Below, one piece after another: positions 42,001-45,000 of a DNA stretch of 64,000 nt (position 1 is its first letter; every line of letters begins with the position of its first letter). Source of the DNA: Candidatus Poribacteria bacterium (GTDB lineage Bacteria > Poribacteria > WGA-4E > PCPOR2b); contig OZ220744.1 of the NCBI GenBank assembly GCA_965116925.1, positions 4,288,001 through 4,352,000 on the forward strand. Direction: 5' to 3'. The position numbers are program-made.

Positions 42001-45000
42001 TTCATCAACTGATTCTCTCTCCTGTCACCTTTTCACGGATGGTTTGCTAATCATTTCCAGCAGCACTTTGATTGTCCACCTGTTCCTCCGATGAAAACAC
42101 CTTAAAATCACAGATAGCGTGCCGAAAAACAACGATTTTTGATTCGTTTTCTAAAATCATCTTAATCTCGTACCTGCTGACCCAATCCACCAATCCCCGA
42201 AAAACTTCTCCTTCCAGCATCGTGACTTCGATTGTGTGCCGAGCCCGCCGCGCTTGAACAATAGTTCGCGTATCGAGACTATAGCGTTTTTTTCGTTGTA
42301 TTATGGGTTTTAAGTTTTGTTCCTTAATTTCCTCGTTGTAGCGGATAATTGACTGTATGTCCGTAGCATCCTTCGCCTTGTAACAGTATTTGACATCGGT
42401 TTTCGGCAGTTCTTGTCTTTCTGCTTCCCCCCCGATAGGATTGGGATTCCGAGCAACTTGTAAAACGAAGTCGTATTTGGTGAATCCAGTGACTGTCACA
42501 GGTAGCAGCGTATGATTATACAATCCAAAAAACATGGGCGTTTGAAGACGGATCTGTTTCTGTGTGTAGAGATCGCCAAAGGTTGGCTGTTCATCAGGCG
42601 AGGAGGCTAGTTCTGGTTTGGGAGTGTGCGGAGGAGAAGGTTTCTGATCTGGGGGAGTATCAATCAATTCAGACGTTGCTGTTTTAACTCTTGGAGTTGA
42701 TAAAGCAGCCGGTGTGGGTCGAGTAGGACTTTGAGACGAGGCAAACGCCTCCTTCTCAGAACCATCTCTTGGCTGCTGAGGTGGGACATAGTTGCGAGGT
42801 ATCACTGCCTTACCTTGCCTCAATCGCTTCTGCTCAAGTGGGGTAAGCAGGATTTTGACGTTCTGGGCGATAGGACCTCTATCGCCAACAGCTACTTCGT
42901 ATCTGACATGCTGTCCTACGTGAATTTCGTCGTATCCACCCTGGATCGCGGAGATATGCATAAAAACATCTCCTTCACCGGTGTCTTGAGCGATGAATCC
43001 ATACCCTTTGTCTGAGTTATAATATTTGACTCGTCCCGTTAGCATCATTTTTTCTCCGTTGGATTAAAGATTTCCGATTGGAATGCGAGCGATTTAGTAA
43101 TAGCACGGAAGATTCCTACCTTGGATGGGATCAACATATTTTGTTAAGTCACGCAGGGAAATAACAGTACAGTCGCTGTCGTGAAGATAATCCATGTAGG
43201 CTTCAAATGTTTCGGGATCTGTGTTGACCCAAGGGTGCTCAAGTGCGGGTACACCGTGAAAGGTCAAGACGGCAATCTGTCCATCTCTTGCCCCCTCAAC
43301 TGCCCACACCAAGTCGTCAAAGGTCCAGTGCGGTCCCGAAGCACCTGTCGTCGGGATGAGCAGCGGATGATGTTTCGCTGGGTTGTATGCGGGTCCTCGT
43401 CCTCCCTCTGAATCGCAGGTAAACTCCGGTGCAATGCCGCGTCGTGCAAAGAGGAATCCTTTCTCAGTCAAGACTTTCACAGCTTCAGGTCCGTTAGAAT
43501 AACCCGGATAACAGAATGTCTCAGGTACAGGGATATTGTATTCCTTGCAACGTAGATCGATGTGTCGCAGGTCAGCGAGCAACTCTTCGCTCGATTGGTT
43601 GTTCACGTTTTTGTGATGGCGGGTGTGGTTGCCAATTTCAAAACCGGCTTCGTGCAGTTCCTTAACCTCTTCCCATGTTACATAGCGGTCTTTGTTTTTG
43701 AGAAAGTTGAGTCCTTCAGTGATGAAAAAGGTCCCACCGAAACCGTAACTCTTCAGTAAGGGTGCTACATAGGTGGCATCCGACTTATTGCCGTCATCGA
43801 AGGTCAAGACAATCAGCCGGTCGGGAATGGGTTGGAGATCTTGGGAGGCGGATATATTCCTATCGTTATCATAAACACGTGATTCGTTCATCGGCTTCCT
43901 TTCAGCGGGACTCATTAGCTGGTTTCCAAGAACTCCCAGAGTCGGTCAAATTGCGCCCCTGTAACAGGTTGATGGCGCAGGATGGTATTGGTATCCTTTC
44001 GCTCCATGTAGCTCGGCGCAAACTCCAATCCCGCGCGAAGTTCGTCGCGGCTTATGCCTACCTCCCTTGGTCGGCGGCGCACTTTGCATCTGTCTAGTCG
44101 ATTCGTCAGAATCTCTGGATGCTCGTCACATTGCCAAGCGATGATAATTGCGCTGAACGCGACCATCTCTCCATGGATGTAGCTTGTGTTATGCTTTTCT
44201 TCTAGGGCAAGCCAGAAATCGTGGTCTCCGCTTGCAGCCTCCGGTCGTTGAATCCAGCGAGAATCGCGTTCTTGTACACTTTTCATGATGTGCCGCACGC
44301 TTTTCCCTGTCAAGTTTCCGTGCGTATCAAGAGTGGCTTCAAATCCTCGGGTAATCTCTTCATGGTGGCTGAGGACATCCGCAATTACTGTTTCGTCGCA
44401 AGGGGGGCCTATGCCGTTTTTGGCACGCCAACGCCATTCTACGGGTGCCGCATACCCGCATAGTATATCACCGAGTCCAGCGGTATTCAGATAATAGGGT
44501 GCTTCGAGAATCAGGTCGTCATCCACCAAAACATGGTCGCAGTCCACCCAGAGCCAATCATCGAGTGCTCCAACGATTTTCCGCCCTTCCCATTTCGCTA
44601 CAACTCCATGGATGATCGCTCCCGTTGATACAATCGTTGGCACCATGACAAGCGGCAGGTCTTTATCTAACGCTACGAACTTTGAAGCATCTAGTGCCCG
44701 TCCGCCGCCCAGCCCAACCACTAACTCCGCGTCATCAGCTAAACTATCGCTTATTTCCTTTTGATGTTTGGAATCCAACCACATCGCATGGGCTACCCCT
44801 GCGGGCGGTTTGGATAGATAGGGTTGTGCTGTTCTGTATGCAGTCGGTGTGGATACCATTAAGTAACGTGGCCACCCGGCACTCTCCTTTTTCAGCAGCC
44901 CTGAATCGTAGCGAATATCATATTCCGCTGCCGGCTTCATCTGACTTGCATGGGACCAGCCGCGCCCTGCTTTATTCATGTTTCCTACCTCTCTTTTTCA

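Follow-up and report, generated by a model that had tools for sequence, protein, structure and literature searches.

In many bacteria the central matchmaker of RNAs is Hfq. Numerous phyla nevertheless seem to have no Hfq, and to our knowledge it is an open question how these run RNA-based regulation. The Poribacteria genome studied here raises this question at one locus: what is a protein that begins as a cold-shock protein (CSP) and ends in two Hfq-like modules, and what may it do where no ordinary Hfq is encoded? The gene lies in the window, by which we mean the whole 64,000-nucleotide stretch of contig OZ220744.1 that was analysed. The genome (one contig, 99.12% complete) has no Hfq or Hfq_1 match above the Pfam cut-off, no CsrA match above cut-off (best 15.1 bits) and no ProQ match. 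At the Pfam level, this agrees with the first-pass annotation, which had reported that ordinary hfq, proQ and csrA genes are absent.

The data support a single-chain protein in which a flexible linker connects a cold-shock domain (CSD) to two Hfq/Sm modules. Its 333 amino acids fall into four parts (Table 1). A CspA-type CSD comes first, followed by a basic extension that is conserved and a Pro-rich linker that varies; the last part is a pair of modules, each of a helix and five strands. The open reading frame came out with the same ends and length as in the first-pass annotation, and the Pfam values given there for CSD, Hfq_1 and Hfq were reproduced exactly. The CSD, linker and tandem Hfq/Sm architecture proposed there also stands; its backing is now stronger, with a family profile that reaches solved Hfq structures through module 2 and with the fold of module 1. 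The stop codon of the upstream gene is only 45 nt before the ATG.

Table 1. Features of the CSD-double-Hfq gene in window coordinates, with the evidence for each
Feature	Residues	Window position	Strand	Basis
Whole open reading frame		42047..43048	-	333 aa + stop codon
Shine-Dalgarno-like GGAG		43054..43057	-	5 nt ahead of ATG, read from sequence
Cold-shock domain	4-65	42854..43039	-	Pfam CSD 67.8 bits, E 7.8e-19
Conserved basic extension (ILLTPLEQKRLRQGKAVIPRNY)	66-87	42788..42853	-	Conservation
Pro/Thr/Ser-rich variable linker	88-151	42596..42787	-	Composition and conservation
Hfq-like module 1	157-224	42377..42580	-	AlphaFold2 models, fold, module-module profile
Inter-module connector	225-259	42272..42376	-	DSSP of model
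Hfq-like module 2	260-318	42095..42271	-	Pfam below cut-off, profile, fold
C-terminal tail	319-333	42050..42094	-	Predicted helix 320-330, poor conservation (model and orthologues)

The N-terminal domain is a CSD by sequence, scoring well over the Pfam PF00313 cut-off (67.8 bits versus 27) and covering model positions 2-64 of 66. NCBIfam models for CspE, CspA and CspD match it at E 4e-19 to 1e-17, all under their equivalog cut-offs, and B. subtilis CspB (2i5m) matches at E 2.2e-16. Its KGYGFI and VFMHI stretches line up with KGFGFI and VFVHF in that CspB; we take them to be the places of the RNP1 and RNP2 motifs, with their aromatic and basic residues on strands 2 and 3. The basic extension that follows has no family match over residues 66-87 and is highly conserved, the share of the commonest residue being mostly 0.8-0.99 among 119 orthologues. 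In the linker this share is mostly 0.2-0.6, and 18 of the 90 residues at 67-156 are proline. The linker ranges from 68 to 134 residues (median 98) in the same 119 orthologues, and its composition and poor conservation suggest that it is disordered.

A new AlphaFold2 model of residues 150-333 (33-row alignment, pLDDT 92.8, pTM 0.87) again has two helix-plus-five-strand modules, and a second model carries the module fold at pLDDT 90.0; both are predicted, not solved, and strands were assigned by DSSP. The S. aureus Hfq-RNA structure 1kq2 was again the first Foldseek match of the core, at a modest E of 4.6e-4 (prob 1.00, TM to target 0.88). A search with residues 155-333 returned 143 relatives, as before. 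Among the 120 listed, 119 carry a CSD, 14 have a precomputed Hfq_1 or Hfq match, and those that bear names are Candidatus Poribacteria.

Module 2 is modelled as a helix (260-268) and strands at 272-277, 281-290, 294-299, 304-308 and 312-318. On the full protein, Pfam Hfq_1 matches residues 261-314 (E 3.8e-4, 21 bits versus a cut-off of 27) and Hfq matches residues 264-313 (E 2.3e-3, 18 bits versus 27); the module 2 piece alone scores 24.3 and 21.4 bits, both still below 27. The protein also fails TIGR02383 (19.7 versus 61.7 bits) and Hfq_rel_Cyano (21.1 versus 52). A profile of the family (33 rows) reaches solved Hfq chains at E 7.1e-8 to 1e-4, through module 2 only. The best are the M. jannaschii Hfq-like chains 5dy9 (7.1e-8) and 2qtx (1.2e-7), followed by B. 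subtilis 3ahu (3.3e-6), Caulobacter 6gwk (5.6e-6), S. aureus 1kq1 (8.5e-6) and E. coli-type chains (about 1e-4). At E<=1 the profile matches 48 chains, 39 of them Hfq or Hfq-like and 8 NusA (about 2e-3). Hfq is also the best structural match of the predicted module: a VIA comparison gives Z 8.0-8.3 and rmsd 1.0 over 60 aa, where Z values of 8-10 are near the range that the tool warns small common barrels can give. On this profile evidence, with which the fold agrees, module 2 is homologous to Hfq.

The residues kept in module 2 point the same way. It carries RRAR (267-270), G280, G285, Y293 and F308-R309-H310-A311. Across 166 representative rows of the family, G280 is kept in 160, G285 in 156 and H310 in 158, Y293 is Y, F or W in 141 and R309 is R or K in 138. 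Y293, R309 and H310 are the equivalents of F42, K56 and H57 in the proximal pocket of E. coli Hfq. As read from these alignments, module 2 retains the Sm glycines, the aromatic residue and the (K/R)-H pair of the Hfq proximal uridine pocket. The 123 Poribacteria orthologue rows also have a rim patch (R267 in 119, R268 as R or K in 113, R270 in 66) that is not kept in the representative rows of the wider double-Hfq family. Residues at the places of the Hfq distal face and of Q8, in our own register, are not kept.

Module 1 has no Pfam match of its own. In the model it consists of a helix (157-167) and strands at 171-176, 181-189, 193-198, 211-215 and 219-224, strands 3 and 4 being joined by a long loop. 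When module 1, modelled alone, was compared with 48,161 chains by VIA-align, the top seven were all Hfq (Z 9.0-9.8, the next row 7.7; rmsd 1.1-1.8 over 60-64 aa). Foldseek likewise gave Hfq in each of the 29 rows shown, with a modest best E of 1.0e-3. In hhalign the two modules match each other at 92.4% (E 5.2e-7) and 94.6% (E 6.7e-8); 30 column shuffles gave at most 3.9% and the reversed control 1.1%. A stand-alone 83-aa ORF from another class of the phylum, with a Pfam Hfq score of 27.5 bits, aligns to module 1 at 96.4% (E 1.4e-9, 32% identity). Module 1 is thus Hfq-like by fold, by its profile match to module 2 and through a stand-alone relative that passes the Hfq cut-off.

Module 1 differs in its pocket. 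With the register set from the DSSP pattern, it keeps the aromatic residue and the lysine (Y192 as Y or F in 132 and K216 in 137 of the 166 representative rows) and appears to have lost the pocket histidine, the position being L in 80 rows, T in 20 and H in 15. The connector between the modules forms short helices at 225-234 and 239-243 and carries a near-invariant R255-Y256 (R in 136 and Y/F in 103 of the 166 rows).

The first-pass annotation had called this the only Hfq-like protein of the genome. That does not hold: we found two further Hfq-like genes, both below Pfam's Hfq cut-offs. One encodes a CSD-less double-Hfq paralogue of 216 aa (G000:C1:4072577-4073224, minus strand, outside the window). 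It has both modules in common with the window protein (31% identity over 162 aa, E 9e-28), carries a basic tail in place of the CSD, and scores 22.7 bits with Hfq_1 and E 5.7e-61 with the family profile. The other is a 118-aa ORF with a coiled coil and a single module (G000:C1:3198524-3198877, minus strand; Hfq_1 21.1 bits). The genome also encodes two ordinary stand-alone CSPs. Given these two CSPs and the two other Hfq-like genes, the window protein need not be the main chaperone.

The family is found almost throughout the sampled part of the phylum. Its profile matches 120 of the 121 sampled genomes, all 115 of high quality, and all 117 of families f1-f6 (same class or closer). Metagenomes contain the double-Hfq core in about 204 clusters at 50% identity, with varied appendages. 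At least 14 of 148 family representatives pass the Pfam Hfq or Hfq_1 cut-off, for example P0147 (44.3 bits), P0253 (43.3 bits) and P0241 (37.7 bits), which has a CSD plus Hfq. A CSD is present in 13 of the 148. Other appendages include basic tails, S1 and HTH_3 (C-terminal in P0128-P0131 and P0193), and there is one relative with GmrSD_N and one with a weak ParB_N. The CSD, basic tails, S1 and HTH_3 fit nucleic-acid binding. Most named family members are labelled 'hypothetical' or 'cold shock protein'.

Both a CSD-Hfq fusion and a tandem-Sm Hfq had been put forward as new. The variant is real; its novelty was overstated, since the core is widespread and the CSD plus double-Hfq build also occurs outside the Poribacteria clade. 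Among the distant relatives, few of which have an organism name, P0203 comes from a 'Pseudomonadota bacterium' MAG, and P0134 was named Hfq by JGI. No paper on the double-Hfq family was found in full-text literature whose coverage leaves out most subscription journals.

Trees of the double-Hfq core were built leaving out five rows (four near-duplicates and the long-branch P0225), and the CSD label needs 6-7 changes on them. Forcing all 27 CSD rows into one group costs 113.6 log-likelihood units (p-AU 0.0029), for a grouping named after the first tree was seen and with some CSD-less rows that may be truncated ORFs. On a single origin of the CSD fusion, with the group a post hoc one, these values let us conclude no more than that the CSD forms are spread over several separate clades.

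The gene neighbourhood is less informative. The surrounding genes are of a metabolic housekeeping type. The upstream polysaccharide deacetylase and Fe-ADH-like genes recur in 9 of 19 related loci, all of these being the closest (at least 69% identity), and a convergent GBBH-like_N (DUF971) gene is close by in 14 of the 19. We treat this arrangement as inherited synteny, no functional link having been seen. Rfam gave nothing at E<=1 over window positions 40000-46000, therefore no cspA-type leader, and a promoter and terminator scan near the gene gave nothing above shuffles.

Expression was looked for in Logan contigs. In three RNA runs, all from one study, contigs span the flanking genes (about 95% identity) and not the CSD-double-Hfq gene. 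From one sponge metatranscriptome come two short contigs of 192 and 133 letters that align over 42206-42496 (about 93-96% alike) and may be DNA carry-over. A contig 'joint' that skips 991 bases was discarded as probably spurious, one of its sides being 27 letters long. This contig support is too weak to claim transcription.

The protein is likely an RNA chaperone, with RNA binding predicted. We think it fairly probable that it is a modular RNA-binding protein in which a CSD is tethered to a duplicated Hfq core forming an Sm-type ring, and that it serves as a general chaperone or post-transcriptional regulator. The N-terminal CspA-type CSD would bind single-stranded nucleic acid, and the basic stretch and the flexible linker of 68-134 residues would tether it to the double-Hfq core, in which an Hfq-type Sm domain has presumably been duplicated within the chain. 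The core may assemble into an Sm-type ring, most simply a pseudo-hexamer of three chains and six modules, a stoichiometry that is a guess. Full pockets (module 2) and degenerate ones (module 1) would alternate around such a ring. The ring could hold U-rich RNA while three tethered CSDs capture or melt neighbouring single strands. In this way the protein, beside its CSD-less paralogue, would chaperone RNAs in general or regulate genes post-transcriptionally in a genome that yielded no ordinary hfq, csrA or proQ.

A bolder version, which we put forward only tentatively and think somewhat doubtful, is that the single-chain double-Hfq has replaced the small classical Hfq in every sampled genome of the Poribacteria families f1-f6. 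Trimeric pseudo-hexamers, in the CSD form with three CSDs on flexible tethers above the ring, would then be the main sRNA-mRNA matchmaker of these sponge symbionts, as one particle that both melts strands (CSD) and matches them (Hfq). Its paralogue without a CSD might form a second, differently targeted ring, or mixed rings with the CSD form.

Could this instead be an ordinary CSP, in which the CSD does all the RNA work and the C-terminal double barrel only oligomerises or anchors it, binding no RNA? Public names of relatives ('CspA family cold shock protein', 'cold shock domain-containing protein') suggest so, and the protein's own Hfq scores are below cut-off and its module 1 is without the pocket histidine. 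However, the module 2 pocket is among the best-kept columns of the family (H 158, G 160 and R/K 138 of 166 rows), which is not expected of a mere scaffold. The core also appears to have a function of its own, because 135 of the 148 representatives are without a CSD, and the genome already encodes two stand-alone CSPs. We regard the ordinary-CSP explanation as unlikely.

It is rather improbable that the double barrel, like WYL domains, senses or binds a ligand, single-stranded DNA or some other, and that the protein acts on DNA, whether in repair, in the control of transcription or in the nucleoid. CSDs and Hfq can both bind single-stranded DNA, and WYL domains are Sm-like barrels too. The HTH_3 relatives, the GmrSD_N one and the weak ParB_N one are consistent with such a role, as are VIA matches to the WYL regulators DriD, BrxR, CapW and PafBC at Z 5.2-6.1. 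Hfq chains, however, reach Z 8-9.8 against 5-6 for WYL, and the sequence profile reaches Hfq and not WYL. The window protein has no HTH, and its Pfam scan lists no WYL. PADLOC matches the CSD only (CSD_V), a tblastn of the core against phage and plasmid collections gave no match, and the neighbours are metabolic genes of a housekeeping type.

A repressor like FljA (Flag1_repress), which acts on fliC mRNA, would block the translation of one or a few specific mRNAs; we regard this as very unlikely. The lead, and it is no more than that, comes from the ESM Atlas: of the three nearest clusters by features (scores 0.90-0.91), two have Flag1_repress on 15% and 86% of their members, next to Hfq-bearing clusters. 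PF03614, however, has no match in this genome at E<=10 and is absent from the Pfam scans of the window protein (E<=10) and of 148 relatives (E<=0.01). A general factor also agrees better with a family present in nearly every sampled genome of the phylum.

Although curated models would score this lineage as 'Hfq-less', it carries a double-Hfq core that is conserved and is fused here to the other classic bacterial RNA-chaperone fold. The double-Hfq proteins form a wide unnamed family and would be a natural test of how an Sm ring works when two subunits fuse and one degenerates, a course that recalls the diversification of the eukaryotic hetero-heptamers. Members now named 'hypothetical' or 'cold shock protein' are a target for annotation.

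Compared with Hfq (PF17209, TIGR02383; 1kq1/1kq2, 6gwk, 3hfo, 4y91, 5szd, and MJ1435 2qtx/5dy9), both predicted modules share the helix-plus-five-strand Sm fold and superpose at 1.0-1.8 Å over about 60 residues. Module 2 also shares the two glycines and the aromatic residue, and has FRHA where Hfq chains show YKHA. An RRxR patch is at the helix end of the Poribacteria orthologues, where Hfq has its rim arginines. Hfq is a homo-hexameric ring that speeds the annealing of RNAs and binds RNA rich in U or in A. Unlike Hfq, whose subunit is a single module of about 70-100 aa, the chain has two modules, therefore it is not a classical single-domain Hfq subunit, and it adds an N-terminal CSD and a long linker. 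Module 1 is degenerate by comparison, with the histidine lost and the long loop between strands 3 and 4.

A tandem-Sm Hfq was also claimed as new in Bacteria, and here the claim gives way: tandem Hfq seems to be curated already. NF010691 (PRK14091) is a 176-position NCBIfam model named 'RNA chaperone Hfq'. It is probably a two-repeat Hfq, because single Hfq-like modules of the family align with it either at about 20-84 or at about 97-156, and P0253 spans 35-156. Tandem Hfq was also reportedly described in an alphaproteobacterium by Sun, Zhulin and Wartell in 2002. Scores with NF010691 in the family are 15.9-31.8 bits against a cut-off of 270 (18.6 and 15.9 for the paralogue), and the window protein has no match to it at E<=0.01, which suggests another lineage of double Hfq. 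NF010691 is without a CSD, whereas the window protein has one.

Ordinary bacterial CSPs are single-domain proteins of about 70 aa. A full CSD is common to CspA/CspB (PF00313) and to the window protein, where it heads a 333-aa multi-domain chain. The build recalls eukaryotic long-tailed CSD proteins, and YB-1 matches at E 5.5e-6. The zinc-finger-Hfq fusions described on Thermococcus and Methanococcus plasmids (Mura et al. 2013, PMC3710371) are alike, by their description there, in placing a nucleic-acid-binding domain N-terminal to an Hfq-type domain; these archaeal, plasmid-borne proteins have a C2H2 zinc finger where the Poribacteria protein has a CSD.

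A gene in the window encodes one conserved protein that consists of a cold-shock domain (CSD) and a duplicated Hfq-type core (module 1, residues 157-224; module 2, residues 260-318). The first-pass annotation had proposed that these lie in one chain, and the Pfam CSD match, the profile of a 33-row family alignment of the core (A1) and the module models bear this out. The open reading frame was found again with the same position and length (see table), and its ATG lies 45 nt from the stop of the upstream gene. The Pfam values also reproduce: 7.8e-19 for the CSD (residues 4-65, 67.8 bits), 3.8e-4 for Hfq_1 (residues 261-314, 21 bits against a cut-off of 27) and 2.3e-3 for Hfq.

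Coordinates of the CSD-double-Hfq gene and of other Hfq-like genes in its own and related genomes
Feature	Position	Strand	Basis
CSD-double-Hfq ORF, 333 aa	window 42047..43048	-	read from sequence
GGAG	5 nt ahead of ATG	-	direct reading
CSD-less double-Hfq paralogue, 216 aa	G000:C1:4072577-4073224 (L002:1474-2124), own genome, outside window	-	core similarity
Coiled-coil + single Hfq-like module, 118 aa	G000:C1:3198524-3198877 (L008:1456-1812), own genome, outside window	-	Hfq_1 21.1 bits
Stand-alone Hfq-like ORF, 83 aa, genome G002	L046:302-553	+	Pfam Hfq 27.5 bits
Stand-alone Hfq-like ORF, 93 aa, genome G004	L045:352-633	-	Pfam Hfq 30.1 bits

In a search of solved chains, B. subtilis CspB (2i5m) aligns with residues 2-64 (E 2.2e-16), and 35 more CSD chains match at E<=1e-5. 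The nucleic-acid-binding motif places, by alignment to CspB, are occupied by KGYGFI and VFMHI. NCBIfam models for CspE, CspA and CspD match at E 4e-19 to 1e-17, all far under their equivalog cut-offs, so we consider the domain a CSD that is orthologous to none of the named Csp proteins. Elsewhere in the genome are two small CSD genes of the ordinary kind (open frames of 72 and 68 aa). A GBBH-like_N (DUF971) gene (97 aa, window 41668-41961, forward strand) lies tail-to-tail with the CSD-Hfq gene; in 14 of 19 related loci, some of just 43-50% identity, it is found close to the orthologue. No functional link between the two was seen in these loci.

Judged from its sequence, module 2 is homologous to Hfq. 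The tie runs through family members that score over cut-off, despite the sub-threshold score of the window protein itself. A word-index search with residues 155-333 again gave 143 relatives, 120 of them listed; a CSD is present in 119 of these, and for 14 there is a precomputed match to Hfq or Hfq_1. As first reported, the named ones are Candidatus Poribacteria, and they are labeled "hypothetical", "cold shock domain-containing" or "CspA family". When residues 150-333 were compared exhaustively by HMMER with 1.84 billion cluster representatives, 204 proteins of 48-1142 aa matched at E<=1e-3, and 66 of them did so at E<=1e-10. A1 combines the window piece with 32 of these relatives, picked for covering both modules. 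Its profile matches solved Hfq-like chains of M. jannaschii (5dy9, E 7.1e-8; 2qtx, 1.2e-7) and Hfq of B. subtilis (3ahu, 3.3e-6), Caulobacter (6gwk, 5.6e-6) and S. aureus (1kq1, 8.5e-6), with E. coli, Pseudomonas and further Hfq chains at about 1e-4. The 48 solved chains at E<=1 comprise 39 Hfq or Hfq-like, eight NusA (about 2e-3) and one designed barrel (0.35), and all Hfq matches fall within profile positions 114-182, which is module 2. At least 14 of 148 family representatives exceed the Pfam Hfq or Hfq_1 cut-off, including the metagenome relatives P0147 (44.3 bits), P0253 (43.3) and P0176 (37.5) and the CSD-bearing P0241 (CSD and Hfq, 37.7) and P0203 (CSD and Hfq_1, 33.9). Also over the cut-off are P0188, P0231, P0240 and P0264, which have two Hfq stretches apiece.

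The AlphaFold2 model of residues 150-333 from A1 (pLDDT 92.8, pTM 0.87) shows a helix and five strands twice, with two short helices between, and so returns the two modules described earlier. S. aureus Hfq-RNA (1kq2) is the top Foldseek match in the PDB (E 4.6e-4, TM to target 0.88) and the sole one at E<=1e-3; Hfq of Synechocystis, Caulobacter, Listeria, E. coli, B. subtilis and others follow at 2-5e-3. Among 48,161 chains compared by VIA-align, Hfq reached Z 8.0-8.3 (rmsd 1.0 over 60 aa, model residues 110-169) and Sm/Lsm proteins Z 5-7.

Because module 2 took up the VIA-align list, module 1 was modeled separately (residues 155-250, pLDDT 90.0). Hfq takes the first seven places among its VIA-align matches (Z 9.0-9.8, rmsd 1.1-1.8 over 60-64 aa; next row 7.7), with alignments spanning nearly the entire Hfq chain. 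All 29 Foldseek rows shown are Hfq (best E 1.0e-3, none at E<=1e-3); among them is an E. coli Hfq engineered to carry a long extra loop, in keeping with the long loop predicted between strands 3 and 4 of module 1. In Pfam, residues 157-252 alone are without a match up to E 10. When the module 1 and module 2 columns of A1 were compared profile to profile, the result was 92.4% (38 columns, E 5.2e-7); under another match-state rule it was 94.6% (49 columns, E 6.7e-8). By contrast, 30 column shuffles of module 2 reached at most 3.9% and the reversed alignment 1.1%. The 83-aa ORF of G002, a genome from another class of the phylum, matches family module 1 by hhalign at 96.4% (E 1.4e-9, 32% identity) and itself exceeds the Pfam Hfq cut-off. 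From the fold of module 1, the match between modules and the link to this ORF, we conclude that the core arose by internal duplication of an Hfq-type domain. The stand-alone ORFs of 83-93 aa may resemble the single-domain ancestor.

Residue places were compared over 290 aligned stretches (123 from the 120 listed relatives and 166 from P0122-P0275, some proteins giving more than one row), with the register from HMMER alignments to Hfq chains and places named by E. coli numbering (F42, K56, H57, Q8). In the 166 wider rows, module 2 keeps the Sm glycines G280 (160) and G285 (156), an aromatic at the F42 place (Y293; Y/F/W in 141), R/K at the K56 place (R309, 138) and the histidine at the H57 place (H310, 158). 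The module 1 register was set by the matching strand-turn-strand pattern in the model; aromatic Y192 is Y/F in 132 of these rows and lysine K216 is kept in 137, and the histidine place holds L in 80, T in 20 and H in just 15. The Hfq pocket residues are thus under strong purifying conservation in module 2 and are kept in part in module 1. Where the module 2 helix ends, at the Hfq rim-arginine place, the Poribacteria rows hold R267 (119 of 123), R/K at 268 (113) and R at 270 (66); residues there are mostly hydrophobic or mixed across the wider family. The abstract of PMC3753642 states that rim arginines of Hfq matter for annealing. The Q8 and distal-face places are not conserved in the aligned rows by the register used. 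An R255-Y256 pair just ahead of the module 2 helix is near-invariant (R in 136 of 166) and is without a nameable counterpart.

The 119 orthologues compared (>=290 aa) share a conserved N-terminal part, residues 1-87, in which a basic stretch (66-87, ILLTPLEQKRLRQGKAVIPRNY) directly follows the CSD. Residues 88-150 are Pro/Thr/Ser-rich and of low conservation, linker length ranges between 68 and 134 residues, and conservation returns from about residue 152.

The genome (one contig, 6.47 Mb, 99.12% complete) appears to lack ordinary hfq, proQ and csrA genes, as first annotated: nothing exceeds the Pfam Hfq or Hfq_1 cut-offs, the best CsrA score is 15.1 bits and ProQ is unmatched. The protein is not the only Hfq-like one of the genome, as had been claimed; two further places score like the window gene with Hfq/Hfq_1. 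In the 216-aa paralogue, both modules come after a basic N-terminal tail rich in Ser, Arg and His; the protein matches the window core at 31% identity over 162 aa (E 9e-28) and the A1 profile at E 5.7e-61. Its orthologues in three same-genus genomes (frames of 228-236 aa) exceed the Pfam Hfq cut-off (30.0, 27.3 and 27.1 bits). It adjoins an ORF that we call QueF-like by reading of the sequence alone. The 118-aa ORF, with a predicted coiled coil, is kept at 85-91% identity in all six same-genus genomes searched; ORFs of 92-93 aa resembling it occur in G002 (loci L044, L047).

With the A1 profile, a match was obtained in 120 of the 121 phylum genomes sampled and in all 115 that are >=90% complete with <=5% contamination. 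All 117 sampled genomes of the six families listed as same class or closer have a match at E<=1e-25, usually in a frame of about 310-350 aa. Two genomes match (about 1e-9) in the families placed no nearer than "same phylum", from which G002 and G004 come. Pfam Hfq exceeds its cut-off in 37 of the 121. Just five of the 47 listed rows are in frames of <=104 aa (G002 twice, G004, G069, G074), and the others, in frames of 128-1426 aa, are further multi-domain relatives, so classical small Hfq seems rare in the class holding the CSD-double-Hfq gene, among the genomes searched.

Both modules are covered by 124 of the 148 representatives, and 13 have a CSD. Five carry a C-terminal XRE-type HTH_3 domain (P0128-P0131, P0193; P0129 and P0130 with a CSD too), and S1, HEAT and GmrSD_N occur in one each, the last in a 1142-aa protein. 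Beyond the HTH_3 proteins, such appendages were seen in P0231, P0264 and P0157. The varied fusions hint at a core that is reused as a unit for binding nucleic acid or for sensing. In numerous members without a CSD, the core is preceded by a basic, low-complexity N-terminal tail or by a helical motif of about 35-40 residues that occurs twice (type ..LA.QVA.G...L...; e.g., P0173, P0195, P0221, P0228, P0237, P0247) and matches no Pfam family at E<=0.01. Trees of the core, from which five rows were dropped (four near-duplicates and long-branch P0225), spread the rows with a CSD over several separated clades (6-7 changes); some CSD-less rows may be truncated ORFs. The AU test of a single CSD clade, a group named after seeing the first tree, gave p 0.0029.

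P0203 comes from a "Pseudomonadota bacterium" MAG, and the nearest ESM Atlas clusters, a lead only, include Pseudomonadota, Myxococcota, Deferribacterota and Nitrospirota. Of the three nearest clusters, two have Pfam Flag1_repress (FljA) on 15% and 86% of their members. Repressors of the FljA type might be remotely related double-Sm proteins, and we found no sequence-level support for their relation to the core. Among the Hfq matches of both models is the Kuenenia diheme cytochrome c Kustd1711 (7zs0/7zs1/7zs2; Foldseek E 3e-3, VIA-align Z 5.5-5.9, chain residues 233-301), which suggests that its C-terminus is an Sm-like barrel.

We predict that the core binds RNA and assembles into an Sm-type ring, for which three chains giving six modules would be the simplest guess, and that the tethered CSD may cooperate with the ring. 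An RNA chaperone or post-transcriptional regulator with a predicted Hfq-like ring core is a reasonably probable reading. The full picture, a predicted pseudo-hexamer acting as a hub, is considerably more tentative. The smaller share of probability that is left goes to rival readings, in which the double barrel would only oligomerize or anchor the CSD, would bind single-stranded DNA or another ligand, or would repress one or a few mRNAs in the manner of FljA.

Neither a CSD-Hfq fusion nor a tandem Hfq nor Hfq in Poribacteria is the subject of any paper found in the full-text literature searched. The one paper with both "Poribacteria" and "Hfq" deals with FlgV, a membrane protein formerly annotated in error as Hfq, and is unrelated. 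Passages of Mura et al. 2013 (PMC3710371) describe Sm domains joined to other domains, including zinc-finger-Hfq fusions on archaeal plasmids, and those searched make no mention of a CSD fusion or tandem Hfq. NCBIfam NF010691, a model of 176 positions, carries the name "RNA chaperone Hfq"; different family members match it with single Hfq-like modules at about 20-84 or about 97-156, and P0253 spans 35-156. In our reading the model describes an Hfq of two repeats, and tandem Hfq is therefore already curated and not new in itself, contrary to the first-pass annotation. The present family scores 15.9-31.8 bits with this model, against a cut-off of 270, and is a different double-Hfq lineage.
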